Source: Bacteroidia bacterium | Lineage (GTDB): Bacteria; Bacteroidota; Bacteroidia; JACCXN01 | DNA length: 64,000 bases | Assembly: GCA_046299555.1 (NCBI GenBank) | Contig: JBKBHS010000003.1 | Span: 268,481 to 332,480 of the forward strand | Reading direction: 5' to 3' | Shown: in pieces, positions 33,108-57,858 of the stretch | How positions within the stretch are numbered: position 1 is the first letter of the stretch | Layout: each line of letters begins with the position of its first letter | Program-made: the position numbers and the translations under genes | The notes under the pieces: generated by a model | The model's database searches: none | Told to the model about the DNA's origin: nothing | The model's input: the letters and a program-made list of their open reading frames with translations, nothing else

Positions 33108-35012
33108 ATGAAAAAACAACTAACTCTTTTACTCTCTGCAATTATTGCAGGACAAATGGCTTCAGCACAATCGCAAAGACTTTGTATGGCAGAAGGTTTT
33201 TCAAATGCAAGTTGTGGTCCATGCGCTGCTCAAAATCCTGCATATAATGCATTAATTAATGCTAACTCTACTAAAGTTGTAAGCATTAAATATCAAACTA
33301 ACTGGCCCGGTACGGATCCAATGAATGCTCAAACTCAAAGCGATGTTGCACCAAGAGTTTCCTATTATAATGTATCTGGTGTACCATGGGGGGCATTAGA
33401 CGGTACAGCACATACAGGTTCAAGTTATACGGGAGCATTAGCCAATCTTAATCAAACAAAAATTGATAACAGATATGCTGTTCCTTCTCCATTCTCAATG
33501 ACTGTAACTCATACTCCCAGCAGCGATTATGACTCAGTAAGTATAAGTGTAACCATTACAGCTTCACAAAATTTTTCTACAAGTGGAACAAATACGCTAA
33601 CGCTACATACAGCTATTATTGAAAAAGAAATTAAATTTGATACTCCTCCTGGAAGCAATGGAGAAACTGTTTTTCATGGTGTAATGAGAAAAATGTTACC
33701 TAATGGAAACGGCACATCGCTACCTACGTCATGGACTAATGGACAGTCGCAAACTATCACTTTTGATGTTCCTATTCCTAGTTATATTTATGACTTAAAT
33801 CAATTAGCTGTAGTAACATTTGTTCAAGAAAATGGAAGCAAAGAAATTCATCAAGCCGGATACAGTGCTCCTCAACCATTGGCAGTTGATGGAGGTATTA
33901 GTGCTATTACAAATGTTCCTGTATTAACTTGCTCTACTTCTTTTATCCCTTCATACACAATTAAAAATTTTGGAACCTCTACATTAACCACAGCTTATGT
34001 AAAATATCAAGTTGATAATGGCCCGATTGATAGTGTTTTATGGAACGGTAACTTAGCTACCAATGCCACTCAAACCATTGCATTACCAACAATAACTTCT
34101 ACTCCCGGCTCTCATACATTAAAAGTTTGGACATCTAATCCAAACAATACAACCGATTTTAATGCGGGTAACAATCAAAAAACAGCTAAATTCAATATTT
34201 TAGGTACAGGTATTAACCCTCCCGTTCAAGAAGGATTTCAAGCAAGCACTTTCCCTCCTACCAATTGGATTCTTGACAACCCGGATAATGGCCCAACATG
34301 GTCGAGAGTTTCAAATGCCGGTAGCCAAAGTTCTTCTGCATCAGCCAGAATGTTTTTTTATAACAGTCCCGCCAATCAAATAGATGATTTATATTTACCA
34401 ATGCTTGATTTCACATCTGTTACAAGCCCGATGAACTTAAAGTTTGATGTAGCTTATGCTTCTTACCAAGGCGAACAAGATCAATTACAAATAAGGGTTT
34501 CTACTAATTGTGGTCAAACATGGACTACTGTTTTTGATAAAGCCGGTTCTACTTTAGCCACAGCACCAAATACTACCAGTTCATTTGTACCTAATGCTAC
34601 ACAATGGAGGGCAGAATCTGTAAGTTTAAACCAATTTATTGGTCAAAGTCAAGTTTTAATTCAATTTAGAGGAATAAGCAAATTCGGTAATAATTTATTT
34701 GTAGATAATATCAACATTTTAAACACTACCGGAATTAATGAAGACAATTCTGATAAGTTTAATTTTAACGTCTTCCCAAATCCTTTCAACAATATTGCTA
34801 CCATATCGTTTAATAATACAGAAAATCAAAATGTAACCATTTCTGTATTTGATGCATTTGGAAAGCAAATTTCTCAAATTAATAAAGGAGAATTAGCTGC
34901 CGGAGAATACACTGAACAATTTGATGGCTCTAACCTACCTGCAGGAATTTACTTTGTAAATATTACTGCCGGAAACAGCAGTGTAACTAAGAAAGTTTCA
35001 ATAACTAAATAA
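33108..35012 (+). CDS. Omp28-related thioredoxin-like (CGPC) surface protein with T9SS type-A CTD (634 aa)
   Basis: Signal peptide. N-terminal MAEGFSNASCGPCAAQNP (Omp28-family motif containing the canonical CGPC), long Ser/Thr/Asn-rich middle, and C-terminal NVFPNPFNN...AGIYFVNIT... sorting domain. Confidence 0.6.
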   Translation: MKKQLTLLLSAIIAGQMASAQSQRLCMAEGFSNASCGPCAAQNPAYNALINANSTKVVSIKYQTNWPGTDPMNAQTQSDVAPRVSYYNVSGVPWGALDGTAHTGSSYTGALANLNQTKIDNRYAVPSPFSMTVTHTPSSDYDSVSISVTITASQNFSTSGTNTLTLHTAIIEKEIKFDTPPGSNGETVFHGVMRKMLPNGNGTSLPTSWTNGQSQTITFDVPIPSYIYDLNQLAVVTFVQENGSKEIHQAGYSAPQPLAVDGGISAITNVPVLTCSTSFIPSYTIKNFGTSTLTTAYVKYQVDNGPIDSVLWNGNLATNATQTIALPTITSTPGSHTLKVWTSNPNNTTDFNAGNNQKTAKFNILGTGINPPVQEGFQASTFPPTNWILDNPDNGPTWSRVSNAGSQSSSASARMFFYNSPANQIDDLYLPMLDFTSVTSPMNLKFDVAYASYQGEQDQLQIRVSTNCGQTWTTVFDKAGSTLATAPNTTSSFVPNATQWRAESVSLNQFIGQSQVLIQFRGISKFGNNLFVDNINILNTTGINEDNSDKFNFNVFPNPFNNIATISFNNTENQNVTISVFDAFGKQISQINKGELAAGEYTEQFDGSNLPAGIYFVNITAGNSSVTKKVSITK

Positions 35013-35030
35013 TTTTAATTTGAAATTTCA

Positions 35031-35070
35031 AACAACGGCCTGTAATTTGCAGGCCGTTGTTATTTAAAAT
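35031..35070 (+). terminator. Terminator hairpin AACAACGGCCTG-taatttg-CAGGCCGTTGTT after the 33108-35012 gene
   Basis: 12-bp perfect stem. Trailing sequence is only moderately T-rich. Confidence 0.5.
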
Positions 35071-35081
35071 CAATAATTCCT

Positions 35082-35603
35082 ATGAAAAAGCTATTAACTG
35101 CAACACTCCTTTTGTTTATTGCAATTACTACACAAGCCCAATCTGAAAACGGAAGAAAAATTCCGGCTGTTGAAGTAAAAAAATTAGATGGCACCAATTT
35201 TAACACCAAAGAAATCTCAAACAATGGGAAACCCATTATTATTAGCTTTTGGGCCACCTGGTGTACTCCCTGCAAAAAAGAACTAAATACCATTCACGAT
35301 TTGTATGATGACTGGAGAGCCGAAACAGGAGTTAAATTAATTGCTGTATCTATTGACGATGCCCGAAACATTCAAAAAGTAGCTCCTTATGTAAACGGCC
35401 GCAATTGGGAATTTGAGGTATATATTGACCCTAATCAGGATTTTAAACGTGCGATGAATGTAAACAACGTGCCTCACACCTTTCTATTAAACGGAAACGG
35501 AGAAGTTGTATATCAACATAATTCTTATGCCGAAGGCGATGAATTAAAATTATACGAACTAGTTAAAAAAGTGGCTAAAGGCGAAGCTATCAACGAAAAA
35601 TAA
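35082..35603 (+). CDS. TlpA-family periplasmic thiol-disulfide oxidoreductase (redoxin)
   Basis: Signal peptide and WATWCTPCKKELNTIHDLYDDW active-site context typical of TlpA/ResA-like redoxins. Confidence 0.8.
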   Translation: MKKLLTATLLLFIAITTQAQSENGRKIPAVEVKKLDGTNFNTKEISNNGKPIIISFWATWCTPCKKELNTIHDLYDDWRAETGVKLIAVSIDDARNIQKVAPYVNGRNWEFEVYIDPNQDFKRAMNVNNVPHTFLLNGNGEVVYQHNSYAEGDELKLYELVKKVAKGEAINEK

Positions 35604-35633
35604 ATTCTTTTACCGCTTATCTTTCATTTAACA

Positions 35634-37277
35634 ATGAAAAAAATAATGCTTTGCATTTTTTGTCTCTTGGGCATTAATGCATCTTATTCACAAATAATGG
35701 ATCAACTTTCAAAAGGTGAGATTCATGGAAATTTCCAAACCGATGTTCAGTATTACAATAAAGATTCATTAATTGGCGCTCCTATTGTTCCGGAAAAAAT
35801 GCTGATGAATGGCTTCGCCAATTTAATTTATACCAACGGCCCTTTTAGCGCTGGAATTCGTTACGAAAGTTATTTAAACGCATTACAAGGCTTCGATCCC
35901 AACTATAAAGGCAATGGTATTCCTTTCAGATATGCTAATTACAATAATGATGGATTAGATGTTACCATTGGTAATTTCTACGAACAATTTGGAAGTGGTT
36001 TAATTTTTAGAACCTATGAAGAAAGAGGACTTGGTGTGGATAATGCCATGGATGGATTTCGTTTAAAATACTCTCCTTTTAATGGAATTTATTTAAAAGG
36101 AGTAATTGGCAAACAACGTTTATTCTTTTCCGAAGGCCCAGGTATTGTAAGAGGGCTTGATGGTGAAATAATGGTAAACGAATTAAAAGAAGCATGGCTT
36201 GAAAATAAATTAAAAGTAATTATAGGTGGTAGCTTTATTAGCAAATATCAAAAAGATGAAGACCCCACTTATGTACTTCCTGAAAATGTGGGTGCATGGG
36301 CTTCACGCGCACAATTGGCTTATGGAAAGTTTAGCTTAACAGGCGAGTATGCCTACAAAATAAACGACCCTTCGTTTATGAATAATTACATTTATAAACC
36401 GGGCGATGCGCAATTTCTCTCTGCAAGTTTTAGTCAAAAAGGACTGGGTATTACCTTATCTGCCAAACGAATTGACAATATGGATTTTCGTTCAGACAGA
36501 AATGAAACAGGGAATAACTTAATGATTAATTATCTCCCTGCATTAACTCGTCAGCATACTTATAATTTGGCAGCAACACTTTACCCATATGCCAGTCAAA
36601 CTGTGGGAGAAATAGGTTATCAGGCCGATATAGTCTACACCATTAAAAAAGGTTCACTATTGGGTGGAAAATACGGAACTACTATTAATATTAATTACTC
36701 CCATTTTTATGCGCTAGATACTACTAACTTAAATGATATGACTACTACACGTCAGCGTTATAAAGCAGAATATTTCTCTGTTGGGAAACCGGTTTATTTC
36801 AGCGATTTTAATATAGAACTGAATAAAAAATTCAGTAATAAATTTAAAATGAACCTGATGTATATGAATCTGGTTTATAACATGGATGTAGTACTTGGAC
36901 TTGCAGGAAAAGGAACAGTATATGCCGATATTGGTGTAATTGATTTAGCTTATAAACTAAATAACAAACACACCATTAGAACCGAACTACAAAGCTTAAC
37001 AACCAAGCAAGATCAGGGCAATTGGGCTACAGGATTAATCGAATATACCTACTCTCCTAACTGGTTTATTGCCGTAATGGATCAATATAATTATGGAAAT
37101 CAAAATGCGGATTTACGCATACACTATCTTACCGGAACAATTGGTTACACTTGGAAAGCCAATAGAATAATGGCTACTTATGGTCGTCAAAGAGCCGGAG
37201 TATTTTGTGTAGGCGGTGTTTGTCGTTTTGTTCCGGCATCTAATGGTTTAACCCTAACAATAACCAGTAGTTTTTAG
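35634..37277 (+). CDS. Predicted outer-membrane beta-barrel / putative porin (DUF6029-like)
   Basis: Signal peptide, 547 aa, alternating beta-strand pattern, C-terminal ...LTLTITSSF. Confidence 0.5.
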   Translation: MKKIMLCIFCLLGINASYSQIMDQLSKGEIHGNFQTDVQYYNKDSLIGAPIVPEKMLMNGFANLIYTNGPFSAGIRYESYLNALQGFDPNYKGNGIPFRYANYNNDGLDVTIGNFYEQFGSGLIFRTYEERGLGVDNAMDGFRLKYSPFNGIYLKGVIGKQRLFFSEGPGIVRGLDGEIMVNELKEAWLENKLKVIIGGSFISKYQKDEDPTYVLPENVGAWASRAQLAYGKFSLTGEYAYKINDPSFMNNYIYKPGDAQFLSASFSQKGLGITLSAKRIDNMDFRSDRNETGNNLMINYLPALTRQHTYNLAATLYPYASQTVGEIGYQADIVYTIKKGSLLGGKYGTTININYSHFYALDTTNLNDMTTTRQRYKAEYFSVGKPVYFSDFNIELNKKFSNKFKMNLMYMNLVYNMDVVLGLAGKGTVYADIGVIDLAYKLNNKHTIRTELQSLTTKQDQGNWATGLIEYTYSPNWFIAVMDQYNYGNQNADLRIHYLTGTIGYTWKANRIMATYGRQRAGVFCVGGVCRFVPASNGLTLTITSSF

Positions 37278-37282
37278 TAAAT

Positions 37283-38206
37283 TTGAATATAATATTCTCC
37301 CCTATGAAGAGACTTCTATCTATAACACTAATTACAGGGATAATTTTAGGATTAAACTCCTGCGATTATGTAAAACAGCCTTTTGAAAATATAATTGTAT
37401 CTGCGCTTGATACTACCAATACATTTAACGATAATGATTCTATTCCCATTCAACGAATATTGGTTGAAGAATTTACCGGACACACTTGCGGGAATTGCCC
37501 TGAAGCTGCATATATTTTAGACAGTTTGAAAAAAAATATTTACAAAGAACAAATGATTTTGGTGAGCATTCACGCTGGATTTTTTGCAGAGCCTTATACA
37601 AGTGGAACAAAATATTTAACCGATTTTAGAACTGCTTCAGGTGATACATATTTTAACGACTTTAACGTACAAGGCACTCCCAAAGCAATGATAAATCGTA
37701 ATCGCTCAATTATAAATAATGGCAATTATGCTTTTACATCTCCAAGTCAATGGAACACCGTTTTAAATGCTTTAAAAGACAGCACTCCATCAGCGCAAAT
37801 ATTACTATCATTTATGTATGATGAAAGTTCCAGAAATTTAAGTACAAGTGTAAAAATTCCAATTCTAAAAAACTTAAATGGTAGCTATGCATTAGTACTT
37901 TATTTTATTGAAGACAATATAGTTGATTGGCAAAAAATTTATCCTAACAAACCCGTTCCGGGTTATGGTACGGGCGATATAGAATTTTATACCCATAAAC
38001 ATGTATTGCGCGGAACAATAAACGGAACTTGGGGCGAAACTGTAATTACAAGTGCTGCTACCATAGGTGATACTTTAACCAAAAATTATTCAGCATTTAA
38101 TGTAAAAACAGATTGGAATATTGATAATGGTTATATAGTAGCCTATTTATACAACACTGCTACAAAAGAAATTTTACAAGCAAGAGAAAAGAAAATTAAA
38201 CCCTGA
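37283..38206 (+). CDS. Omp28-related outer-membrane lipoprotein with CxxC (CGNC) thioredoxin-like motif
   Basis: Lipobox (ILGLNSC) and EEFTGHTCGNCPEA, matching the Omp28-family signature. Confidence 0.65.
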   Translation: MNIIFSPMKRLLSITLITGIILGLNSCDYVKQPFENIIVSALDTTNTFNDNDSIPIQRILVEEFTGHTCGNCPEAAYILDSLKKNIYKEQMILVSIHAGFFAEPYTSGTKYLTDFRTASGDTYFNDFNVQGTPKAMINRNRSIINNGNYAFTSPSQWNTVLNALKDSTPSAQILLSFMYDESSRNLSTSVKIPILKNLNGSYALVLYFIEDNIVDWQKIYPNKPVPGYGTGDIEFYTHKHVLRGTINGTWGETVITSAATIGDTLTKNYSAFNVKTDWNIDNGYIVAYLYNTATKEILQAREKKIKP

Positions 38207-43498: not shown

Positions 43499-43581
43499 AA
43501 ATTAAAAATTTATAAGAATGGGTAAAAGTATAGATTTTTTAAATATATTTGATTTTATAAAACTAATTAATTTAAACTGTT

Positions 43582-44415
43582 ATGATTAAAAAAATTACTT
43601 TTTCGTTTGCTATTGTAACGCTTATCTGCATTGTAATGTTTAGTTACAATAATAAAGTTCATTCTAATTCATCAGGAGCACCTGCCGGCAAAACAGGATC
43701 TCCAGGAGACGGCTCGAGTTGTAACAGTTGTCATTCAACAAGCGGAACTCCTGCAACAGGTGCTATTTTGATAACTTCAAATGTACCTACCGGAGGTTAT
43801 ATTTCGGGTAATACATACTCCATAACCGTGAGAGCTGCACACAGTACTTTTAATAAATTCGGGTTTCAAATTTCTCCACAAGCTGCTAACGGCACCTTGT
43901 TAGGTACATTAGCTATTACGAATGTAAATGAAACTCAATTAGTGGGTTCAGGTAAATATGTTACTCACAAAGCTGCCGGCACAACCGGAACTAACATTCC
44001 TATGATAGGTAATTTTAAAGAATGGTCGTTTAATTGGACAGCTCCTGCTCCCGGAACAGGTGCCGTTACTTTTTATGGAGCTGCATTATTGGCTAACAGC
44101 AATAACCAAAATACAGGCGACTCTTTAGTATTAGGTACTTTAGTAATTAATGAATCTTCCACTAATGGAATTGATAAAAATATTATAGAGAAAGGAGTTG
44201 CTGTTTATCCAAATCCGGCTAAAGAAATATTGTATTTACAAATTAATGAATTAGCTGAGGTAGAAATAATAGATGTTAGCGGTAAATCAATGTTAAAACA
44301 ACAAATTAATAACGGAATAAATAGTTTTGATATAAGTGGCTTAAATTCGGGGTTATATTTTGTTAAAATAACGGGTAAAGAAAACAAACTAATTAAAAAA
44401 TTTGTTAAGGAATAA
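43582..44415 (+). CDS. T9SS type-A CTD protein with N-terminal CxxCH heme-binding-type motif (GDGSSCNSCHST)
   Basis: Signal peptide, SGAPAGKTGSPGDGSSCNSCH motif, Thr/Gly-rich beta domain, and C-terminal VYPNPAKEILYLQINE...SGLYFVKIT sorting domain. Confidence 0.55.
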   Translation: MIKKITFSFAIVTLICIVMFSYNNKVHSNSSGAPAGKTGSPGDGSSCNSCHSTSGTPATGAILITSNVPTGGYISGNTYSITVRAAHSTFNKFGFQISPQAANGTLLGTLAITNVNETQLVGSGKYVTHKAAGTTGTNIPMIGNFKEWSFNWTAPAPGTGAVTFYGAALLANSNNQNTGDSLVLGTLVINESSTNGIDKNIIEKGVAVYPNPAKEILYLQINELAEVEIIDVSGKSMLKQQINNGINSFDISGLNSGLYFVKITGKENKLIKKFVKE

Positions 44416-44450
44416 AAAAAGCGGGGTTATCCCGCTTTAATTTTAATTTG
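44414..44450 (+). terminator. Terminator hairpin AAAAAGCGGGgttatCCCGCTTT plus T-rich tail
   Basis: 5-bp GC stem followed by TTTAATTTTAATTT. Confidence 0.55.
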
Positions 44451-44452
44451 TT

Positions 44453-44836
44453 ATGAATAGATTGCCCATATTCTTAATTTTTGCAGGTATTTTGATATCT
44501 GTTTCTTACCTATCTTGCACAAAAGATAAATACGAAATTCCCGGAAAAAACCCACCTCCTCCACAGGATACAACCAACAATAATTCTCCAGTAAATATTT
44601 GCGATACAGCAACCGTTAAATACGGTAATTATATTGCCAATATAATTAATACCAATTGTGGAACTTGTCATTCGCAATACACCAATTATAACGGATTAAA
44701 AGCCATTGCCGATAACGGAAGTTTAAAAGCAAGGGTTGTGGATGGAAACCCAAGCCCCATGCCTCCGAGCGGGCTTTTGCCTCAATCTACACGCGATTCA
44801 ATTTTATGGTGGATTAATGGTGGTAAATGTCAATAA
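44453..44836 (+). CDS. Small lipoprotein with CxxCH motif (CGTCHS), putative c-type cytochrome-like domain
   Basis: Lipobox (SYLSC), Pro-rich linker, and NTNCGTCHSQY motif. 127 aa. Confidence 0.45.
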   Translation: MNRLPIFLIFAGILISVSYLSCTKDKYEIPGKNPPPPQDTTNNNSPVNICDTATVKYGNYIANIINTNCGTCHSQYTNYNGLKAIADNGSLKARVVDGNPSPMPPSGLLPQSTRDSILWWINGGKCQ

Positions 44837-44853
44837 ACAATAAACAATAAACA

Positions 44854-45399
44854 ATGAAAAAAATCATTTTAATATTTCTATTGCTGCCAACTGCAATATT
44901 TTCTCAACCAATTTTTACAGCCGTTTCAAGTGAAGTGCATTTTTTCTCTGCTGCTCCACTTGAAAATATAGAAGCTACTAATAAAGATGCAAAATCTTTA
45001 TTAAACACTGAAACAAAAGAAGTAGCTGTTATAATTGGAATTCGTCAGTTTAAATTTGAAAAACCGCTCATGGAAGAGCATTTTAACGAAAACTACATGG
45101 AGAGCGATAAATACAAAACAGCTGATTTTAAAGGGAAAATAAATGAAAATATAGATTTTACTAAAGATGGTGAATATGATGTAACTGTAAGCGGGAAATT
45201 AACTATTCATGGAATAACACAAGAAAGGACCATTCCCGGAAAAATAATAGTGAATGGAAAAACTATTAAAGTTAATTCTAAATTTCCGGTTGCATTAAAA
45301 GACCATAATATTAAAATTCCTCGTGCAGTAATTCAAAATATAGCTGAATCGGTTGATGTTACCGTTAATATTAGCTACGAACCTAAAGCTTCAAAATAA
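44854..45399 (+). CDS. YceI-family periplasmic protein (polyisoprenoid-binding fold)
   Basis: Signal peptide, 181 aa, and the YceI-like pattern VHFFSAAPLENIEATNKD... ending ...VTVNISYEPK. Confidence 0.6.
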   Translation: MKKIILIFLLLPTAIFSQPIFTAVSSEVHFFSAAPLENIEATNKDAKSLLNTETKEVAVIIGIRQFKFEKPLMEEHFNENYMESDKYKTADFKGKINENIDFTKDGEYDVTVSGKLTIHGITQERTIPGKIIVNGKTIKVNSKFPVALKDHNIKIPRAVIQNIAESVDVTVNISYEPKASK

Positions 45400-45402
45400 A
45401 AT

Positions 45403-46323
45403 ATGAGTCGTTTATCCATCCTTACATTTACACTTTCTTTTTTTTATTGTTTAAACATCAATGCTCAGGATGATTTAATGAGCATGTTGCAAAATGATAC
45501 CAAAGAAGAAAAGCCAGAAAAAGTAATTGCCACATTTAAAACCACTAAAGTAGTGAATGCACAATCTACCGAAACTGTTAAAGCAAGAACACTCGACTTT
45601 AGAATTACGCATCGCTTTGGAAACATGGGAACCGCAAGCAATGGCGGAGTGCACACACTTTGGGGTTTTGATCAGGCAGAAAATATTCGCTTTTCATTCG
45701 ATTACGGAATTACCGACCGCATACAAGTTGGAATTGGCAGAAGCAAACGCCAAGAATTAATTGATGGAAACTTTAAAATAAAATTACTGGAACAAACTGT
45801 TGACAACAGCGTACCCATTTCATTAGTATGGTATTCAAATGCTGCAATCACTCCCAGAAAAGACATCGATAAAATTTATAGTAAAACCTTACATCGTATG
45901 TCCTATTCACATCAGCTAATTGCTGCAAGAAAATTTGGCAACTGGTTTTCATTAGCGCTATTACCCACCTACACACATAGAAATATTGTTGCCAACGATG
46001 TAAACAAAAACAACAATGCAGCCGAAACAAACGGCTTTTTTTCAATGGGAATTGCTGGTCGTTTAAAACTTACGCAGCGATTGGTTTTGGTTGCTGACTA
46101 TTTTTACAATGTATCAGATTACAGAATAAATAATCCGGACAGACCATTTTACAATCCTTTGGGAGTTGGTATTGAAATTGAAACCGGTGGACACGTGTTT
46201 CATATTAATGTAACCAATGCCGGTGGAATAATTGAGAATGATTTTTTACCTTATACCAATGACACTTGGACTAAAGGTGGTTACAAGCTTGGCTTTAATA
46301 TTTCGAGAGTGTTTAACTTTTAA
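45403..46323 (+). CDS. DUF5777-like outer-membrane beta-barrel protein
   Basis: Signal peptide. Motifs ARTLDFRITHRFGNMG...GG.HTLWGFDQAENIRFSFDYGITDRIQVGIGRSK recalled as the DUF5777 signature. C-terminal ...FNISRVFNF. Confidence 0.5.
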   Translation: MSRLSILTFTLSFFYCLNINAQDDLMSMLQNDTKEEKPEKVIATFKTTKVVNAQSTETVKARTLDFRITHRFGNMGTASNGGVHTLWGFDQAENIRFSFDYGITDRIQVGIGRSKRQELIDGNFKIKLLEQTVDNSVPISLVWYSNAAITPRKDIDKIYSKTLHRMSYSHQLIAARKFGNWFSLALLPTYTHRNIVANDVNKNNNAAETNGFFSMGIAGRLKLTQRLVLVADYFYNVSDYRINNPDRPFYNPLGVGIEIETGGHVFHINVTNAGGIIENDFLPYTNDTWTKGGYKLGFNISRVFNF

Positions 46324-46326
46324 AAC

Positions 46327-47661
46327 ATGGCTAAATACTTACTACTCTTTTTTCTGTTTTTAAAAACTATAGTTTCTGCTCAGAATCTATACTTCCCTCC
46401 ATTAACAGGCAATTCGTGGGATACCTTATCTCCTGCAGCACTTGGATGGTGTAATGATAAAATAGACTCTTTGCTTAATTATTTGGAACAACGTAATACC
46501 AAAGCTTTTATAGTTTTAAAAGATGGCAAAATTGTAATTGAAAAATATTTTGGCACGTTTACGCAAGATAGCATTTGGTATTGGGCATCTGCAGGCAAAA
46601 CATTAACCGCATTTACAGTTGGTATTGCACAACAAGAAGGTTATTTATCTATTAATGACACTACATCAAATTATTTAGGAACAGGTTGGACAAATTGTAC
46701 CATTACTCAAGAAGAAAAAATTACTATTCGCCACCAATTAACAATGACAAGTGGTTTAGATGATGGTGTAACTGACCCTTATTGCACCATTGATACCTGC
46801 TTAAAATATAAAGCCGATGCAGGAACACGTTGGGCATATCACAACGCTCCTTACACTTTACTTGACAATGTAATTCAAAGTGCAACCGGTCAAAACCTAA
46901 ATACCTATTTTACTAATAAAGTTAAAATTCCAACCGGTATAACAGGTACATTCTTTTATACAGGATTTAACAATGTTTTTTACAGTAAAGCCAGAAGCAT
47001 GGCCAGATTTGGACTTTTAATTTTAAACAAAGGCAATTGGAATGGCAATCAAATAATGACCGATACAGCTTACTTTAATCAAATGGTAAATACCTCTCAA
47101 TCGTTAAATGAATCATATGGTTATTTATGGTGGTTAAATGGTAAAAATTCTTTCATGGTTCCTAATACTCAATTTGTTTTTCCGGGTCAATTATTTCCTT
47201 CTGCGCCTTCAGATATGATTTCTGCACTTGGTAAAGATGGTCAAATTATAAATGTAGTGCCGAGCGAAAATTTAGTTGTTGTTCGAATGGGAAATGCGCC
47301 ATTAATTTCACAAGCTGTTTCAATAACTTTTAATGATACCATTTGGCAAAAAATAAATGAATTAACATGCAATTCAACACTAATCGAAACTAACAGTAAA
47401 AACAGCTTTTTTAATTTTTACCCTAATCCCACATATGATAAATTAATTATTGAATTACCTGAATGGAATGAATATCAATTTACAGAAGTTGAAATATTTG
47501 ATATTTCAGGAAAATTGGTTTACAATCAAAAAAATGAAAACTTCAATTCACCCCTTGAAATTAATGTTACAACATTAAATCAAGGAATTTATTTTTTAAC
47601 AATTAAAAACAAGCAAATACCTGTTTTAAAAGAAAAATTTGTAGTTAATAAAACTTTCTAA
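46327..47661 (+). CDS. Serine hydrolase, beta-lactamase/transpeptidase-like, with T9SS type-A CTD
   Basis: S-x-x-K motif (WASAGKTLTAF), YHNAPY (Y-x-N-like) and C-terminal NFYPNPTYDKLIIELPE...GIYFLTIKNK sorting domain. Confidence 0.7.
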   Translation: MAKYLLLFFLFLKTIVSAQNLYFPPLTGNSWDTLSPAALGWCNDKIDSLLNYLEQRNTKAFIVLKDGKIVIEKYFGTFTQDSIWYWASAGKTLTAFTVGIAQQEGYLSINDTTSNYLGTGWTNCTITQEEKITIRHQLTMTSGLDDGVTDPYCTIDTCLKYKADAGTRWAYHNAPYTLLDNVIQSATGQNLNTYFTNKVKIPTGITGTFFYTGFNNVFYSKARSMARFGLLILNKGNWNGNQIMTDTAYFNQMVNTSQSLNESYGYLWWLNGKNSFMVPNTQFVFPGQLFPSAPSDMISALGKDGQIINVVPSENLVVVRMGNAPLISQAVSITFNDTIWQKINELTCNSTLIETNSKNSFFNFYPNPTYDKLIIELPEWNEYQFTEVEIFDISGKLVYNQKNENFNSPLEINVTTLNQGIYFLTIKNKQIPVLKEKFVVNKTF

Positions 47662-48761: not shown

Positions 48762-51700
48762 ATGATGCGATTACTTTTTCTTTTATCCATATTTTTTATA
48801 AATCAGTTAAGTATAGCACAACTTAACGACAATTTTACAGATGGTGATTTTACAAATAATCCAACATGGAGCGGCAATGATACGGTATTTACCATTGCCA
48901 ATGTTAGTGGTAATAATATGCTGCGCTCAAATTCACAAACTGCCAGCAATACCTTTTATTTATCAACACCAAGTACCTTGGTAAATGATTGTCAATGGGA
49001 GTTTTATGTGAATTTACAATTCAACACATCAAGTACTAATTATGTAGATATCTATTTAATATCCAATAGTGCCGATTTAAAAGCCGCCTCATTTAACGGC
49101 TATTTTGTTAGAATTGGAAACACAGCCGATGAAATTTCACTATACCGCAGAACAGGAAGCACCAATACCATGATTATTAATGGAACTGATGGTGTTACGA
49201 ATAATTCAAACAATATTTTAAAGATAAAAGTAGTACGAACTGCCTCTAATGTATGGACATTGGAACGCGACATTACAGGAACCGGAAACGATTATTTTTT
49301 AGAAGGAAGCGTGACGGATGCAACCCATTTAACCTCTACGCATTTTGGAATTTCTATCACACAATCAACTGCAAGTTTTTTTAACAAACATTTTTTTGAC
49401 GACTTTTATGTAGGTCCCATTATTTATGATACCACACCACCTCAAGTAAATAGCGTTACTGTTGTATCCTCTACTCAATTAGACGTTTTATTTAGTGAAA
49501 ATGTTGATTTAATAAGCTCCCAAACACTTACAAATTACTTAGTAAATAATGGGATTGGGAACCCTATAGCAGCAGTTAGAGATGCTTCCAATTTTAAATT
49601 GGTACATTTAACATTTAGCAATGCATTCACCAGTGGACAAACCAACATTATCACCATTCAAAATGTGCAGGATGTTGCATTAAACACAATGGCAACTCCT
49701 CAAAACTTTTTCTTTACCTATTATTTAACCGTACCGGCTACTTATCGTGATATTATATTCAATGAATTATTCCCCGACCCTTCACCGGTAGTTGGATTGC
49801 CGGAACAGGAATTTGTAGAGTTATATAATCGTTCTTCAAACAATATTAATTTAGCGGGATTAAAATTTTCCGATCCATCTACTACCGCAACTTTAGGAAA
49901 TACCATTCTATTACCCGGAGAATATATTATTTTATGCCGCATGCAAGACACCGCTTTATTTAGCGGCTTTGGCAAAGTAATGGGATTATCTGTATGGCCC
50001 AGTTTAAATAACTCAAGCGATTCATTATGGCTAAGAGATGCGGGTGGCAATGTAATTGACTTTGTTTATTATACCGATGCTTGGTATAAAAATTCGGCAA
50101 AGAAAAACGGAGGTTGGACACTTGAATTAATTAATCCGCTCTTGCCATGCAGCGGTGTAAACAATTGGATTGCCTCAAATAATCCTATAGGAGGAACACC
50201 GGGCACACAAAACTCTGTTTTCAGTAATACACTTGATAATATACCTCCAACTATTACCAATATTCAAGTTGTTTCACAAACACAACTTGCCGTAACCTTT
50301 AGCGAAAGTATGGATAGTACCACATTGGTTAATGGAGCCTATACCATTTCTAATGGAATAGCTATAGATTTTGTATCTCCAATTGGACCAGACTTTACCA
50401 ACATGAATGTAAATCTGCTGAATATAATTGATACCGGCATTGTATATACATTTACTGCCATAGGAATAACAGACTGTTCAGGTAATACCATAAGCAATTC
50501 CGGCAATAATAAAGTATTTGGCATTGGTCGTCCGGCACAAAAATTTCAAGTTGTAATAAATGAATTATTTCCAGACCCAACCGGAACACCATTCTTACCT
50601 GAAAATGAATTTGTAGAATTATACAATACTACCAACCAGGTATTAAGCTTGCGATTTTACAGTTGGTCGGATCAAAGCTCTTCAACCCTACTGCCTGATG
50701 TAACCATTTTCCCTAATGAATATATTATTTTATGTGCATCAGCCGATGTAAGTTTATTTGAACAGTACGGAAAAACCATAGGCTTAAGCAGTTGGCCGTC
50801 CTTAAATAACTCTGGCGATGTAATGACCTTGCGCGATAATAATGGAAATTTAATTCATCAAGTTGCATATAGCGATAAATGGTACAACGATGATGAAAAA
50901 AGAAGACAAGGAGGGTGGAGTTTAGAAATGATTGACCCAAAAAATCCATGTGGAGAAGAAACAAACTGGAGAGCTAGCGTAAGCAGTAACAGAGGAACAC
51001 CCGGACAAATAAACTCTGTTGCAACATCGAATTTAGATACTAAAGGGCCGAATTTATTAGCAGCATTCGCCATTAGCCCCGATACTGCATTACTCCGTTT
51101 TAATGAGATTTTAGACAGTGCATCCGTTTTTAATGCCGTTTATAATATTACCGGAGGAATTACGGCAAATATTATTGGTCAAAAATCTCCTAAAGAAGTG
51201 TTATTAAAACTTACCCCTTCTCTTCAATCAGGAATAACCTACATTGTTCAAGCAAATCAAATAAATGACTGTGTTGGCAACTTAATTGATGCAGGGTTTG
51301 CCTTTTTAATTCTGCCTGAACAAGGTGAACCGGGAGATATTATTATTAACGAAGCTTTATTTAACCCCAGAACCGGTGGTAGTGATTTTGTAGAAATTTA
51401 TAATCGCTCCAATAAAGACATAGATTTACGCAATTGGAAATTGGCAAATTACGACAAAGATACAATTAGTAATTTGAGAACAATCACTGATGATTATCGC
51501 ATATTAAGACCTGGAAATTATGCCATGCTTTCGAAAGATACTGCTAACATTAAAAAAGAATATCCTTTAGCAGAGAGTAGCACTTTTATACAAATGGCGT
51601 CAAAACCAGCATTTAATAACACCTCTGGAAATATTATTTTAATTAACAATAAAGATGAAGTGAGTGATAGATTTGATTACAACGAAAACATGCATTTCCC

Positions 51701-52169
51701 ATTGCTGAACAGTAAAAAAGGAGTTTCGTTAGAACGTTTAGATTTTTACAGACCAACTGATGACCCAACCAATTGGCAATCGGCTGCAGAAAGTGTTGGT
51801 TTTGCAACTCCAGGGTATAAAAATTCTCAGTATTTAGAAAGTAATTTCAGCGGAGGAGATATTACAATAAATCCGGCTATTTTCTCACCGGATAATGATG
51901 GTTATCAAGATGTTTTAAATATCAATTACCAATTTAATCAATCCGGATATGTTGGTAATATAACCATTTATGATTCCAATGGACGCCTTGTTAAAAACCT
52001 GATGCAGAATGAACTTTTAGGAACAAGCGGTACAATTACTTGGAACGGAATAAACGAAAATAACGAACGAGCAAGTATTGGTATTTACATCATCTATTTC
52101 GAAGTATTTGATTTGAATGGAAAGGTAATCAAATACAAGAAAACCTGTGTATTGGCATCGCGACTTTAA
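48762..52169 (+). CDS. Large secreted protein with three lamin-tail (LTD) domains and a T9SS type-B C-terminal domain (1135 aa)
   Basis: LTD signatures at three positions ([12 protein letters not shown]...[21 protein letters not shown]...[33 protein letters not shown]). C-terminal [25 protein letters not shown]...YIIYFEVFD... matches the type-B (gliding-associated) CTD. Confidence 0.75.
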   Translation: [1135 protein letters not shown]

Positions 52170-52218: not shown

Positions 52219-52782
52219 TTGCATATGACTTATAACTATAAACTCAAAAACACTGACAAATACGTAAGTGTTTGTGCTATTGGTAAGGAACATTTAGAAA
52301 CAAATCCTTATTTCAACGAAATTAAATTGTTAGAAAATTTAAGGCTACACTCTGCCGGCTATGCAGTATTTGCACGTAACATTCCACAAAAGGATGGAAG
52401 CTATAAAAACGAAACCATTTATTTACATAAATATTTGGGAGAAAAATTTATCCCTAAACCCCAATCTTCACAACGTTTATTTGTTAGTTTTAAAAACAAT
52501 AATCCACTCGATTGCCGATTGGAAAATTTAGAGTGGATATCAATGTCGATGTTGCGCAGAAACCAAACCAAAAGCAGCAATAAAACAGGATATAGAGGAG
52601 TAGTACAAACAGGCAAAAAATATCATGCTTTTATTTATGACGGAAAAAGAAGAATTGAATTAGGTTCATACGATACAGCTGAGGCTGCTGCTGAAGCATA
52701 CAATAAAAAATCTATCGAACTTTTTGGTAAAACTAAAGGATTAAATAAAATTGAAAATAAAAGCTTACAAAATACATATTAA
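52219..52782 (+). CDS. AP2-domain DNA-binding protein with a degenerate HNH (HNH_3/NUMOD-like) N-terminal region; homing-endonuclease-like, probably catalytically inactive
   Basis: N-terminal GYAVFARNIP...IYLHKYLGEKFIP...FVSFKNNNPLDCRLENLEWIS resembles HNH_3 but has Ser/Phe where the catalytic His is expected. C-terminal YRGVVQTGKKYHAFIYDGKRRIELGSYDTAEAAAEAYNKKSIELFG is a canonical AP2 domain. Confidence 0.65.
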   Translation: MHMTYNYKLKNTDKYVSVCAIGKEHLETNPYFNEIKLLENLRLHSAGYAVFARNIPQKDGSYKNETIYLHKYLGEKFIPKPQSSQRLFVSFKNNNPLDCRLENLEWISMSMLRRNQTKSSNKTGYRGVVQTGKKYHAFIYDGKRRIELGSYDTAEAAAEAYNKKSIELFGKTKGLNKIENKSLQNTY

Positions 52783-53505: not shown

Positions 53506-56500
53506 CTAATTTAAAATCATTTTCACTACTTCGCCATCGCTGGTTTTAATAAAATACAAACCTGATTTTAAATTTTGAACATTTAATTGGTTAACATTTT
53601 CTTCATTTAAAATCATCTTACCTACAGCATCATAAACCTCAACTGATACGGTTTTATTAAAGTTTACTTCACTACCTGAAACAGGATTGGGATAAATCTT
53701 TAATGCCACTTTATCGGTATTATTTGTTTTTTCTATGCCGGTTGGTGTTGTTCTAACACCTGTGGCCGGATTTGTTACTAAATATTGCGGTGGATTACAA
53801 TTATATTCATAAACTGCAAAAAAGTAAGTTGAATTAGGTGATAATCCGGATAAATTAAATGAGTTTCCACTACCATTAAATACTACATAACCACTACCAA
53901 GCTCAGAACCTGTTGAACCAAAAACAGCATTAGCCGTATATACGGTACCACTAACAGGAGCATTTGCTACTGCAGCACCTTGGCGTGCTACCACTATTCT
54001 ATTTGAACCATTTCCATTTGTCCAAGAAAGAGTCATACTTGTTGAAGTAACATTACTAAATGATAAGCTACTTGCAGGCACAGTTGGTGCAGCACATGGG
54101 TCTATACAATTAATCAATGTTGTAACAACAAGCGGAGTTGAACTATTATCTGTGGCTACTAATTGGAAAGTTTCAACCGTATTGTACTGAACATCGTTCC
54201 ATGTATAAACTCCATTATTCATAGCTTGTGGTCCTAAACCACTTGTGCTAGATAATATTCCTGTACCGGGTGTACCTCTTGACAAGGTAATACTTCTTGG
54301 AGCTGTATCAATATTATTATTTGCATCTACAGCTGAAACAGTAACTGTAAAGTTTTGATTTAAGAATGCAGTTGCAGGAACAGTTGTATAAACTAACTGC
54401 GTAGCTGTTACTGAAATTACATTTTGTGTACCATCTGATTCAATTGAAAAATTAGCAACTCCTGAACTATTACAAGCATTTCCAATGGTAACACCATTTT
54501 GATTTAAGGCCAATTGAATAATGCTACCATCAATAATATTTCCATTTGCTGCAAGTGATATTCTGATGCTGTAGGTTTTAGAGGCATCATCTGGAATTGA
54601 TTCTGAAAGCCCGTTGAAAGAAATAGAATTTGATGTTATAACAGCATCTTGTAATTTTAAGGAACCATCAAATAAAGCTGCGGCAGCTATTGTTGTTGTA
54701 AAATCAGACACCGTATTTAATGTTCCTTGCGTAAAGTTTAATGCCGATATGTTGGTAGGTAAATTATCTGTATCGCCTGAGGCTCCACCATCCCTAATCG
54801 TAAATTGCCATACCTGAACACCATCAGCTACAGTATTTATTGAACCGGTAGTTGTAGAAGGTATAGTTGCAGTTTCTGAATTAAGCACAGCAATAGCATC
54901 AGAAGTAGGAGCTAATAATGGTGAAGAAGAAACGGTAATATCATCTAACTTTAATCGTGGACGAGAACCGGCAGAACCAGATGCCTGATAATAAAACCAT
55001 CTTAAATAAACAGCAGACTGATTATCGCATGCTGCCGGCAATTGCACGCCTGTAAAAGTTTGTGTATGCCCTACCGTTTGCGATGCCGATGTATATTCAA
55101 CAGGGCCTGGAACATCTAACCATGTTCCATTGCCAATTCGATATTGTAAACGGATGTTATACACACGATTATTATCGGTCTGTACCAATGTTCCACAAGT
55201 AAAATCTACTAAAATATTTGTTCTGCCTGATGTATTTAATCCAAGTACTGCAGCTCCAAGAGTACCGTTTGTTCCGGTATTAACAAATGAAATTCCATCA
55301 ACACCCAAACCATTTATACGAGTACCGGATGTTAAATTATAAGCCCCCGTATAATTTCCGGTATCTAAAGCAGCCAATCCCGGATCTTGTGCATTAAAAC
55401 GATGAAAAATCATATTGGCAGGATAAGTACTTGCCGGCTCTGTTGCATCCCAGTTATTAAAAACGTAGGGTCCTGCACATAATGCATAAGTTGCAGGTAA
55501 AGTTGCAACTTGTGTAGCATTACCACTTACTGAAACATTAATCGTATTAGCTCCGGTACTTGTGCATACCACGTTACCGGATTGTGGACCCGAAACAGAT
55601 GGATTAAAACGTACATACACCCATGTTGGAGCTACGGTTCCTGATGTAGGAACTAAATTTACACTTGCTCCAAAACCACTTGAATTACTGGTAGAAACCT
55701 GAAAATGAGTTGGTGCGGTAATAACAATATCATTAGTTAAAAATTGTCCTGAAACTTGAACACTATCTACATTTGAAGGAGTTCCAACTTGTGTTGAAAA
55801 AGCAGCTAAAGAAGTAACGTTAGTAAAAATAGCAGGCGTAGTTGGTGTAGTAAAACTTGCCGATGGAGGGTTTGCCAATCGATAATCAGCCGGATTACAA
55901 TTATATTCCACTACTGCAAAATGATACGTTACTCCAGGAGTAAATCCCGTAACGTTAACCGAATTTCCACTGCCGTTATAAAGAACATAGCCTGAGCCTA
56001 ATTCTGTTCCTACTGAACCAAATGCGGGATTGGCAGTATAGGTAACACCATCAACCGGAGGATCGGCAACAGGGCTTCCCTGGCGACCGATTAATATTCT
56101 GCCAGAACCGGTTCCGTTTGTCCAGCTCACAGTAACGCTTGTTCCTGATGGATTGCTAAATTGAATATTGCTGGCATCCATGTTAGGTTCGTTACATGCA
56201 ACGAATTTTGGTATGATGGTTAAACTGTCAATTGCTAATCCATGATCTCCAACTGAAGCAATATCTTCATCAACCCATCTAATCCAAATAGAACCTCCAT
56301 TGGGAATAGCAGCAAAACCGGTAATTTCATCAGAAATTAATGTTCTGTTTAAAGGATCATTTCCATTTAATGCACCACTAGTACCGGTTGTAATTGGAGA
56401 AATAAAATTTAAGGTATTAAAACTTGTCCAGGTTCCTGTATTTAAAGAAGTAGCATCGGTACTTAATTCAAAACGCAATGAATCTGTTATACCTGTACTA

Positions 56501-57858
56501 CCTAATCGCCACTGTTCTCCTACATAAGTAATTTCTAATGTGTTTACATTATTACCTGTATTATTAAGCAATTTTGCACCCAAGTAAACAGGAGTTAAAG
56601 AAGCAGTAGTAAGAGAACCTAAGGCTCTATCAGCAGATGCACTTAAGCCATAACTATAAGTATCGCCTGTATTTGAGCTACCATTATTTGCTCTGTATGT
56701 AGTGTTTGCATTGGTGCCTAGTTCAAAAAAGTAAATTCCTCTGGAAATATTAGTTTGAGCCGTACCTGTTGTATCTAATTCATCAAATGTAGTTAAAGCG
56801 GAAGCTGTATTTAATGCCGTTAAGACAATGGCCTCATCATCATCATTTATATCAATATTCACTGTTGAAGGAGAACCAATGCTTAACCCTGAACTTACAG
56901 AAGTAATTGAAATTATTGCCGTTTCTAATCCTTCACGTAAATTATCATCTACAATGGTAAAAGTAACGCTACCTGTAGTTTGTCCGTTAGGTATGGTTAT
57001 TTGGGTATTGCTTAACGAATAATCTCCTGCCGTAATACCTACGCCACTAACAGCTAAACTTACAGTTTCGTTTGCTGTAACAGCACTTGCAGCCGTTGCA
57101 GTAAGTGTAATTACAGTAGCATTAGCTTCGCTACCACTTGATGCAGAAGCGCTAAGTGTAACAGAAGGTGTACTTACATTTTGTCCGGTAACATTTATAT
57201 TATCAATACCAATTCCTAAGCTATTACCCGTACCGCTCGAAGGTCTCCACAAAGCCCATCTAAACTGATAATCTGTTGAAGGTGTTAAACCCGTTACCAA
57301 CAAATTAAATTGAGTAACGGTGTCTTGCGGTTGAGTTCCTGTGTATAAATTGGCTGAACCGGGCACAGTGGTCCACGTTCCACTTGTTCCTTGTCTGTAT
57401 TGTAAAACCGTACCAAGTTGCCTTGTTGATGAATTTCCATTATTGACTAAAATTAAATCGTATGCAATATTTACTGCATTAAACGAACCTGTATTAATAG
57501 CAAATACAACTTGATTTACTCCATTAGTTGCATTTGTACTAGATTGAATAAAAACCCTAGCATCGGTTGAAGGAGAAACCATTTGGCCATATACTCCGGC
57601 TGTATTAGAAGGATGTGTTTGTGTTGTTAATGCATTAACCGTTGCATCACCAGTTGGCACAGATGCTTCGGCTAAAGCCTGTGTAGTTGTTGAACCTCCA
57701 TTAATACCATTCCAGGCAGCCATACCTGCCGGCATTGCAGTAAATGTAGCTGAACCAAAATTTTGTGTATAAGGTAAACTTTGTGGTGTTGGATTGGTTT
57801 GTGCCACTATTGCAGCAGCACTCATCATTCCTAAAATTGAAAGTATTACTTTTTTCAT
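53506..57858 (-). CDS. Very large T9SS type-A CTD surface protein (1450 aa) with Calx-beta-like and duplicated FN3/Ig-like modules; putative adhesin
   Basis: Signal peptide. Calx-beta-like block (GDYSLSNTQITIPNGQTTGSVTFTIVDDNLREGLETAIISI). Two internally duplicated about 110-aa modules (…ANPAFGSVGTELGSGYVLYNGSGNSVNVTGFTPGVTYHFAVVEYNC and …ANAVFGSTGSELGSGYVVFNGSGNSFNLSGLSPNSTYFFAVYEYNC). C-terminal KIYPNPVSGSEVNF...SGLYFIKT sorting domain. Confidence 0.7.
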   Translation of the reverse strand: MKKVILSILGMMSAAAIVAQTNPTPQSLPYTQNFGSATFTAMPAGMAAWNGINGGSTTTQALAEASVPTGDATVNALTTQTHPSNTAGVYGQMVSPSTDARVFIQSSTNATNGVNQVVFAINTGSFNAVNIAYDLILVNNGNSSTRQLGTVLQYRQGTSGTWTTVPGSANLYTGTQPQDTVTQFNLLVTGLTPSTDYQFRWALWRPSSGTGNSLGIGIDNINVTGQNVSTPSVTLSASASSGSEANATVITLTATAASAVTANETVSLAVSGVGITAGDYSLSNTQITIPNGQTTGSVTFTIVDDNLREGLETAIISITSVSSGLSIGSPSTVNIDINDDDEAIVLTALNTASALTTFDELDTTGTAQTNISRGIYFFELGTNANTTYRANNGSSNTGDTYSYGLSASADRALGSLTTASLTPVYLGAKLLNNTGNNVNTLEITYVGEQWRLGSTGITDSLRFELSTDATSLNTGTWTSFNTLNFISPITTGTSGALNGNDPLNRTLISDEITGFAAIPNGGSIWIRWVDEDIASVGDHGLAIDSLTIIPKFVACNEPNMDASNIQFSNPSGTSVTVSWTNGTGSGRILIGRQGSPVADPPVDGVTYTANPAFGSVGTELGSGYVLYNGSGNSVNVTGFTPGVTYHFAVVEYNCNPADYRLANPPSASFTTPTTPAIFTNVTSLAAFSTQVGTPSNVDSVQVSGQFLTNDIVITAPTHFQVSTSNSSGFGASVNLVPTSGTVAPTWVYVRFNPSVSGPQSGNVVCTSTGANTINVSVSGNATQVATLPATYALCAGPYVFNNWDATEPASTYPANMIFHRFNAQDPGLAALDTGNYTGAYNLTSGTRINGLGVDGISFVNTGTNGTLGAAVLGLNTSGRTNILVDFTCGTLVQTDNNRVYNIRLQYRIGNGTWLDVPGPVEYTSASQTVGHTQTFTGVQLPAACDNQSAVYLRWFYYQASGSAGSRPRLKLDDITVSSSPLLAPTSDAIAVLNSETATIPSTTTGSINTVADGVQVWQFTIRDGGASGDTDNLPTNISALNFTQGTLNTVSDFTTTIAAAALFDGSLKLQDAVITSNSISFNGLSESIPDDASKTYSIRISLAANGNIIDGSIIQLALNQNGVTIGNACNSSGVANFSIESDGTQNVISVTATQLVYTTVPATAFLNQNFTVTVSAVDANNNIDTAPRSITLSRGTPGTGILSSTSGLGPQAMNNGVYTWNDVQYNTVETFQLVATDNSSTPLVVTTLINCIDPCAAPTVPASSLSFSNVTSTSMTLSWTNGNGSNRIVVARQGAAVANAPVSGTVYTANAVFGSTGSELGSGYVVFNGSGNSFNLSGLSPNSTYFFAVYEYNCNPPQYLVTNPATGVRTTPTGIEKTNNTDKVALKIYPNPVSGSEVNFNKTVSVEVYDAVGKMILNEENVNQLNVQNLKSGLYFIKTSDGEVVKMILN

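Follow-up and report, generated by a model that had tools for sequence, protein, structure and literature searches.

A small cytochrome c-like lipoprotein, a YceI-family protein and a predicted outer-membrane beta-barrel of the DUF5777 family are encoded by neighbouring genes in a combination that recurs widely in Bacteroidota, and the three proteins are very probably linked in function and rather likely to perform electron transfer. In a member of the Bacteroidia this trio is preceded by the gene of a Reeler-fold protein that carries a second haem-attachment-like motif together with a sorting domain of the type IX secretion system (T9SS). The cluster lies in a window of 64,000 nucleotides (nt), which is the whole stretch of DNA that was analysed (contig JBKBHS010000003.1 of assembly GCA_046299555.1, positions 268,481 to 332,480, forward strand), and the whole analysis was computational. 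As a tentative proposal, the cluster would represent a widespread and so far unrecognised redox system of Bacteroidota, in which DUF5777 and a YceI quinone carrier are combined with an interchangeable cytochrome c or Rieske protein, and which in some lineages would feed a T9SS-displayed Reeler-fold monohaem cytochrome.

The first gene of the cluster (43582 to 44415, 277 amino acids (aa)), whose product is referred to as P1, encodes a choice-of-anchor V or Reeler-fold protein whose N-terminal part comprises a signal peptide and a Cx2CH arm and which ends in a C-terminal sorting domain (CTD) of T9SS type A. It is followed by the genes for P2, a small lipoprotein with a putative, divergent class I cytochrome c domain (44453 to 44836, 127 aa), for a periplasmic member of the lipid (polyisoprenoid/quinone)-binding YceI family, made with a type I signal peptide (44854 to 45399, 181 aa), and for the DUF5777 barrel, which also has a signal peptide (45403 to 46323, 306 aa). 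All four lie on the + strand, with intergenic gaps of 37 bp (P1 to P2), 17 bp (P2 to YceI) and 3 bp (YceI to DUF5777). An earlier note on this DNA had described these four co-directional genes, and the list of open reading frames (ORFs) agrees exactly with the coordinates it gave; it had also pointed out a CxxCH motif in each of P1 and P2, and these are indeed found, as CNSCH at residues 47 to 51 of P1 and as CGTCH at residues 69 to 73 of P2, and its T9SS type A, YceI and DUF5777 assignments all score above the curated cut-offs. Absent from that account were a fifth co-directional gene that begins 3 bp after DUF5777 and a terminator-like hairpin between P1 and P2. Both P1 and P2 possess N-terminal signal peptides, of type I and of the lipobox type, respectively. 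A six-frame screen of window ORFs of at least 100 aa found CxxCH in P1 and P2 alone, and the fact that only these two adjacent genes carry it argues that their pairing is not due to chance.

P2 is in all likelihood a divergent class I c-type cytochrome with putative His/Met ligation. The protein consists of a lipobox signal peptide (...YLSC) ending at the lipid-bearing Cys22 (nt 44516-44518, + strand), a tether rich in Pro, Thr and Asn, and an 80-residue domain. Within this domain the CGTCH motif (C69, C72 and H73; nt 44657-44671, + strand) is invariant in 104/104 family members, while Met103-Pro104 (nt 44759-44764, + strand), which contains the candidate distal Met ligand, is at least 90% conserved family-wide; in the 13 close homologues C69, C72, H73 and M103-P104 are all invariant, and there is an additional conserved Cys pair, C50/C126. 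A search for cytochrome c-like domains had been proposed in the earlier note, and by profile comparison P2 does prove to be cytochrome c-like: the family profile matches the solved structures of QcrC, c6, CcoP and PccH at E values of 2.9e-5 to 1e-3, with CxxCH placed over the haem motif of these cytochromes and MP over their Met-Pro segment. Moreover, PF13442 is matched by 44 of 104 P2 relatives at E <= 0.01 (best 6.5e-7), and further relatives match the PccH, Haem_bd, Cytochrom_C and PSCyt1 models. The AlphaFold2 (AF2) model of P2, which is haem-free, is helical, with a predicted local distance difference test score (pLDDT) above 90 for residues 50 to 127.

An exhaustive HMMER search placed 430 cluster representatives in the P2 family, most of them lipoproteins of about 120 aa, and some relatives contain two to six tandem copies of the domain. 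Multi-domain examples include P0183 (749 aa, 6 motifs), P0149, P0153, P0208, P0233 and the giant P0167 (3295 aa); by analogy, such tandem monohaem-type proteins are reminiscent of electron wires. With regard to localization, the residues that follow the lipid Cys of P2 show no clear acidic run of the kind expected for a surface-export signal (of the lipoprotein export signal type), Asp being commonest at +4 (52/131) and Lys at +3.

As regards P1, the domain assignment is firm and haem binding is on balance the favoured interpretation of its motif. P1 reaches 90.2 bits against a cut-off of 42 for NF041895 (choice-of-anchor V) over residues 23 to 185, and the NCBI entry identical to it is named 'choice-of-anchor V domain-containing protein'; the type A CTD (TIGR04183, 58.9 bits against a cut-off of 23) occupies residues 208 to 277 (nt 44203-44412). 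In the case of PF02014 (Reeler), P1 itself scores 17.3 bits and is below the gathering score of 21, whereas a precomputed PF02014 match is present in many of its homologues, and the profile of the N-terminal domain matches the F-spondin reeler at E 5.5e-4, with the common motifs Y-x-PG-x-Y and W-x-AP-x-AGTG; the Reeler beta-sandwich fold is found in P1. Ahead of the sandwich lies an arm with the consensus SGAPAGxTGSPxDGxxCxxCH, modelled at pLDDT 87-90, which has no counterpart in spondin, and the same is true of His129. Next after the reeler, the profile of this arm matches the haem sites of reaction-centre cytochromes, with borderline E values of 0.016-0.04.

The CNSCH of P1 (C47, C50 and H51; 43720 to 43734, + strand) is the candidate covalent haem attachment site and H129 (43966 to 43968, + strand) the candidate distal ligand, a position that is His in 273 of 284 distinct homologues (Gln in 6, Tyr in 3 and Ser in 1). 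The earlier note had held that a lack of conservation of the CxxCH residues in orthologues would refute a haem function, and this refutation fails, as all 284 P1 homologues keep Cys, Cys and His, just as the P2 family does. Homology of P1 to cytochrome f of the b6f complex (large domain) was considered and rejected: in an hhalign comparison with a verified sequence of turnip cytochrome f, the family profile reached a probability of 0.9%, and cytochrome f is missing from the top 50 Foldseek matches of P1, so that the likeness appears to be a structural analogy only, at the level of the fold.

The choice-of-anchor V family comprises at least 2296 clusters. A third homology search, with the profile of the P1 N-terminal domain, returned only T9SS proteins of Bacteroidota among the 120 matches listed, and none of the anchor diversity that the family name implies was seen among them. 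Genes of this family also occur as tandem paralogues (L013, L027, L065 and L074), and the domain forms the N-terminus of longer T9SS proteins (L036, L061, L070, L072 and L077; P0032, P0118 and P0120), some of which contain SprB repeats (PF13573).

The haem signature that had been read into both proteins holds in part: the two cysteines and the histidine are invariant, whereas their spacing is variable and the motif is in reality Cx(2-6)CH. In the P1 family (n=284) the cysteines are separated by two (205), three (10), four (68) or five (1) residues, and in the P2 family by two to six, the window P2 having two and many relatives four to six. The main variant, C-A-x-S-G-C-H, is common to the unrelated P1 and P2 families, examples being CASSGCH in P0036, CATPGCH in P0144 and CAQSGCH/CTQSGCH in L081; no clear correlation was seen between the spacings of P1 and P2 inside one locus. 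That CAxSGCH is common to both families is suggestive of one maturation constraint, and the motif hints at a lineage-specific tolerance of, or preference for, CAxSGCH in the haem-attachment machinery. Because the invariant His stands right after the second Cys at every spacing, haem c fits better than a plain disulfide, and CX3CH and CX4CH count as haem c motifs in genome surveys (PMC5566968).

The other two members of the trio are assigned with scores above the cut-offs. The YceI protein scores 51.5 bits for PF04264 against a cut-off of 23.7 (E 1.8e-13), and its family profile matches the solved YceI structures 5ixg, 1y0g, 5w2x, 2fgs and 3hpe. The DUF5777 protein scores 294.8 bits for PF19089 against a cut-off of 23.1 (E 5.7e-88) and has an aromatic C-terminal end (...RVFNF); it matched no other family, and comparison with solved structures revealed no relative by sequence.

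Genomic linkage was determined from two independent anchors, namely P1 in species-representative genomes (80 loci) and DUF5777 in metagenomes (80 loci, of which the 37 flanked by 1.3 kb or more on either side were counted), all locus counts being raw, with kinship ignored. In what follows V denotes choice-of-anchor V (P1), c the cytochrome lipoprotein (P2), Y YceI and D DUF5777. Of the 37 DUF5777 loci, 34 have the cytochrome lipoprotein as a neighbour, 32 have YceI and 29 have both, at least one of them being present in all 37, and 12 gene orders occur, of which c-Y-D is the commonest. When P1 serves as the anchor, 15/80 loci are adjoined by the cytochrome lipoprotein, YceI and/or DUF5777, which are the commonest neighbours of P1 (15, 12 and 13 loci, respectively), in the arrangements V-c-Y-D, V-c, V-c-D, V-Y, V-c-c-D and c-c-V-Y-D. 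Relatives of P1 at 53-58% identity keep V-c-Y-D, a 41% relative has V-c only, a 44% relative has V alone, and one genome contains c-Y-D without V. The many permutations of gene order point to selection on linkage, and the counts from both anchors indicate that the conserved unit is P2, YceI and DUF5777, to which P1 is a recurrent but facultative addition; the evidence for P1 as a partner of the trio is evenly balanced. The four-gene module of the earlier note thus stands in so far as the gene order recurs widely, whereas P1 is not an obligate part of it, being alone in about 80% of its loci.

Part of the linkage signal stems from a conserved syntenic block, with an acyl-CoA dehydrogenase upstream and DUF4271, HemD, RnpA and an S41 peptidase downstream. 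DUF4271 and HemD (uroporphyrinogen-III synthase) are co-directional and just 3' of the trio, followed by rnpA and the S41 peptidase gene, in 12-13 of the 80 loci anchored on DUF5777 (HemD in 12) and also in L005:10212-12101 and L007:8900-10355. The presence of a gene of haem biosynthesis beside cytochrome genes is notable, but probably a matter of synteny.

The strongest argument for electron transfer comes from a different redox carrier. In 7/80 DUF5777 loci a Rieske [2Fe-2S] lipoprotein with a twin-arginine translocation signal (PF00355, above cut-off) adjoins DUF5777 and YceI. In three of these loci it occurs in addition to the cytochrome (L140:4489-4905, L159:6468-6908 and L160:6468-6911), while in the other four no cytochrome gene was detected (L122:2-469, L133:1335-1787, L135:4443-4925 and L156:2-496); L122, L133 and L156 offer little sequence upstream of the Rieske gene, and in L135, where the flank exceeds 4 kb, the absence is real. 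An alternative one-electron carrier at the barrel argues that this component transfers electrons and is not concerned with haem or lipid binding. The outer-surface electron transfer put forward in the earlier note thereby gains independent support, from Rieske lipoproteins that adjoin the barrel, at some loci without a cytochrome gene.

On these grounds an outer-envelope electron relay that ends in a T9SS-displayed haem protein can be proposed with slightly less than even confidence. What the data show directly are the family assignments, the motif conservation, the gene linkage and the Rieske lipoprotein beside the barrel, whereas the attachment of haem, the topology, the direction in which electrons flow and the physiological substrate are what we infer. 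P2 would be a monohaem His/Met cytochrome held at a membrane in the periplasm by its lipid anchor and flexible linker, and YceI a periplasmic carrier of isoprenoid quinone or a similar lipid, so that P2 would swap electrons with the YceI-held quinone and work at the DUF5777 barrel. P1 would gain one covalent haem on its Cx2CH arm in the periplasm, with H51 as the proximal and H129 probably as the distal ligand, and would then leave in folded form through SprA by means of its type A CTD, to be displayed on or released from the surface; the SprA channel passes folded cargo. The path would run reversibly from YceI quinol/quinone to the P2 haem, at or through DUF5777 to the P1 haem, and from there to an external acceptor or donor, which could for example be iron, oxygen species or a redox enzyme.

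Both SprA, the T9SS translocon (18673 to 25944, - strand, 2423 aa; PF14349 SprA_N, E 9.5e-201), and a DsbD-type thiol:disulfide reductase (60046 to 62136, + strand) are encoded in the window, which means that a secretion route and a periplasmic thiol-reducing pathway exist. The latter protein combines DsbD_N (PF11412), a 'cytochrome c biogenesis' transmembrane domain (PF02683, E 1.3e-28) and a thioredoxin domain (PF13899). A DsbD-type reductant keeps CxxCH thiols reduced during cytochrome c maturation. Dedicated maturation genes (ccsBA/ccm, haem lyase) and the WWD motif were not found in the window, where DsbD stands alone. T9SS CTDs are present on at least five window proteins (30904-31605, 33108-35012, 43582-44415, 46327-47661 and 53506-57858).

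Signals for transcription were also considered. Upstream of P1, the intergenic octamer TATATTTG (43544 to 43551, + strand), 31 nt before the start codon, matches the Bacteroidota -7 promoter consensus TAnnTTTG and is a candidate promoter element. This consensus is depleted across the window, with 71 matches against 114 +/- 10 in shuffles, a deficit that would fit selection against promoters arising by chance within genes; a scan for sigma-70 promoters gave matches not above the shuffled expectation. In the gap between P1 and P2, a GC-rich hairpin, AAAGCGGGG-TTA-TCCCGCTTT (44418 to 44438), with a 9-bp stem containing 5 GC pairs and with A and T runs on its flanks, looks like an intrinsic terminator or attenuator. 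Its position suggests that P1 is probably either a transcription unit of its own or attenuated before P2, and P2, YceI and DUF5777 (44453-46323) are probably one operon.

Several observations weigh against an outer-envelope relay that includes P1. P1 is near DUF5777 in just 4/37 loci, and 65/80 P1 genes have no trio nearby; the linkage counts themselves are inflated by shared ancestry, because part of the linkage falls in the conserved syntenic block. P2 taken alone scores 13.1 bits for PF13442 and 15.8 bits for PF14376 (Haem_bd), against cut-offs of 27, and a Foldseek search of the PDB with its haem-free AF2 model gave nothing significant, the best match being PccH at E 7.5, a null result that is treated as uninformative because the model lacks haem. 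Haem attachment is read from motifs, and a Cys spacing of two to six residues, as seen across the two families, is unusual for haem c; the haem lyase expected in Bacteroidota is of System II. Furthermore, two single haems and a small barrel are few cofactors for crossing the outer membrane, and the neighbourhood yielded no inner-membrane quinol dehydrogenase as a partner. Alternatively, P2 would be the sole cytochrome and P1 a surface binding or adhesion protein of Reeler fold, in which Cx(2-5)C forms a disulfide loop, the next His, perhaps with H129, is metal-holding or structural, and proximity to the trio is inherited synteny and not a sign of function. A spacing of two to five residues is natural for a disulfide loop, the hairpin separates P1 from P2, P1 sits in a conserved syntenic block and has no redox neighbour at 65 of its 80 loci, no eukaryotic Reeler domain is known to bind haem, and the F-spondin reeler is a binding module. 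On the other hand, the His after the second Cys, invariant at all spacings, is the haem c signature; CAxSGCH is also found in the P2 family, which is unrelated and cytochrome-c-like; the members of the trio are the three commonest neighbours of P1, in at least five arrangements that include V-c without YceI or DUF5777; and P1 has no other conserved Cys or Met, which leaves too few ligands for a typical Zn site. A P1 of this kind is regarded as fairly unlikely.

The remaining alternatives concern the cluster as a whole. It is improbable that the cluster serves the trafficking of a hydrophobic molecule (isoprenoid quinone, pigment, haem or porphyrin) through the periplasm and the outer membrane, with YceI as the carrier, DUF5777 as the channel and the CxxCH proteins as binders of ligand or haem, and the haem- or isoprenoid-handling alternative of the earlier note is likewise the less likely one. 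Solved YceI homologues are indeed named lipid or polyisoprenoid binders, the DUF5777 barrel is small and would be sized like channels for lipids or hydrophobic substrates, and P2 has its weak match to Haem_bd; yet a pure one-electron carrier, Rieske, stands beside the barrel in seven loci, some of them without a cytochrome gene, which is difficult to square with ligand binding, P2 shows the His/Met pattern of electron-transfer cytochromes, and versions of its domain with two to six repeats resemble electron wires. HemD, often just downstream of the trio, would also suit trafficking, but HemD and DUF4271 form a syntenic pair independent of the trio as well. Quite unlikely, too, is an envelope defence against oxidants, in which a cytochrome or Rieske protein would act together with quinone bound by YceI to remove superoxide or peroxide or to repair outer-membrane lipids damaged by oxidation. 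The E. coli yceI gene is paired with a cytochrome b561 gene, and b561 proteins of the CybB type are superoxide:quinone oxidoreductases; this analogy, the wide distribution of the module in metagenome-assembled genomes of aerobic Flavobacteriales, Sphingobacteriales and Chitinophagales, and a thiol-redox outer-membrane cluster 6 kb upstream in the window speak for such a role, while the cluster contains no peroxidase, catalase or superoxide dismutase-like domain. Oxidant defence would in any case still be electron transfer and overlaps with the proposed relay, from which it differs in substrate alone.

P2 resembles class I cytochromes c (PF13442 and PF00034; QcrC, c6, CcoP and PccH) in its early CxxCH, its Met-Pro in the last third, its predicted all-helical structure and its periplasmic export, but it is highly divergent and below the Pfam cut-offs, and it carries a lipid anchor and a low-complexity tether as well as the C50/C126 pair; moreover, its relatives have Cx4-6CH in place of the CxxCH of class I cytochromes c. 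Compared with the Reeler domains of F-spondin and the reelin N-terminus, P1 is bacterial and T9SS-sorted and adds the invariant Cx(2-5)CH arm and His129. In FRRS1, a eukaryotic ferric-chelate reductase, a Reeler domain stands next to DOMON and cytochrome b561 domains. Unlike cytochrome f, P1 lacks the small domain and the C-terminal membrane anchor, and its distal ligand would be a candidate His, whereas that of cytochrome f is the N-terminal amino group.

The closest functional precedent, likened here by domain content, is Cbp2D/E, which combines a YceI-type binder with two single-CXXCH domains outside the cytoplasmic membrane. The secreted Cbp2D of Cellvibrio contains a YceI-like domain that binds ubiquinone-8 and two different CXXCH domains (PMC8981238), of which X183 is a proven electron-transfer cytochrome that reduces lytic polysaccharide monooxygenases (PMC8981238, PMC12542752). 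Cbp2D/E is, however, a single polypeptide with CBM2 and fibronectin type III (FN3) domains that acts on cellulose, whereas the window cluster consists of separate genes with a barrel and T9SS, and no carbohydrate-binding module or lytic polysaccharide monooxygenase is encoded near it. With MtrCAB/Pcc and Cyc2 the cluster would share the genetic coupling of an outer-membrane barrel to c-type cytochromes, on the periplasmic and the surface side. In Cyc2 of iron oxidisers, a single haem and a barrel can suffice. These systems differ in that the cluster has no multihaem proteins, with a single motif each in P1 and P2, and has YceI in addition; their conduits consist of a multihaem cytochrome in a barrel of 16-26 strands or of a fusion, and the MtrB and Cyc2 barrels show no detectable relation to the 306-aa DUF5777. 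The surface partner would be exported by T9SS, compared with the type II secretion system in porin-cytochrome conduits. Membership of the MtrCAB/Pcc/Cyc2 class was therefore rejected, since P1 and P2 are monomotif proteins and DUF5777 matches no other family, although the cluster may, by analogy, work like a porin-cytochrome conduit.

Beyond the trio, the fifth gene of the cluster (46327 to 47661, + strand) encodes a serine hydrolase of beta-lactamase fold with a T9SS type A CTD (PF00144, E 1.2e-28; PF18962, E 3.1e-16). Directly after DUF5777, such a T9SS cargo was found elsewhere only in L006:7561-8216, L127:5889-7199 and L150:3338-4645, that is, in one close locus (L006) and two distant ones, the latter two without YceI, and the protein is a possible accessory member of the cluster. 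Elsewhere in the window, four co-directional genes (33108-38206, + strand) encode a CARDB-domain T9SS cargo, a TlpA/AhpC-like thioredoxin, a DUF6029 protein (547 aa) and an Omp28-family lipoprotein with a CGNC thioredoxin-like motif, and these may constitute a second envelope thiol-redox module. Downstream of the cluster, a 1135-aa protein with three lamin-tail domains and Big_5 (48762-52169, + strand) is followed by a small HNH endonuclease (52219-52782, + strand); both genes appear to be unrelated to the haem cluster.

As degraders, Bacteroidota play a major part in soil, water and guts, yet to our knowledge hardly anything has been learned about whether, and by what means, they exchange electrons with their environment. 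Extracellular electron transfer is known mainly from Proteobacteria and Desulfobacterota and relies on multihaem proteins, so that single-cofactor carriers combined with a lipid-binding YceI and a small barrel would constitute a different architecture. The families involved are already catalogued (NF041895, PF19089 and PF04264), and no functional study of them was found: the literature yielded none on DUF5777, none specific to choice-of-anchor V, and none on bacterial haem-binding Reeler domains, while the fact that no published T9SS-secreted cytochrome was found is weak negative evidence. If the proposal is true, P1 would mark the first case of a c-type cytochrome secreted by the T9SS and of haem binding by a Reeler domain; as a c-type cytochrome built on a beta-sandwich it would parallel cytochrome f, and it would hint at why FRRS1 has a Reeler domain. 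It would also provide a function for two large 'unknown' families, DUF5777 and choice-of-anchor V, define a new class of T9SS cargo, and give the Reeler fold a testable function.

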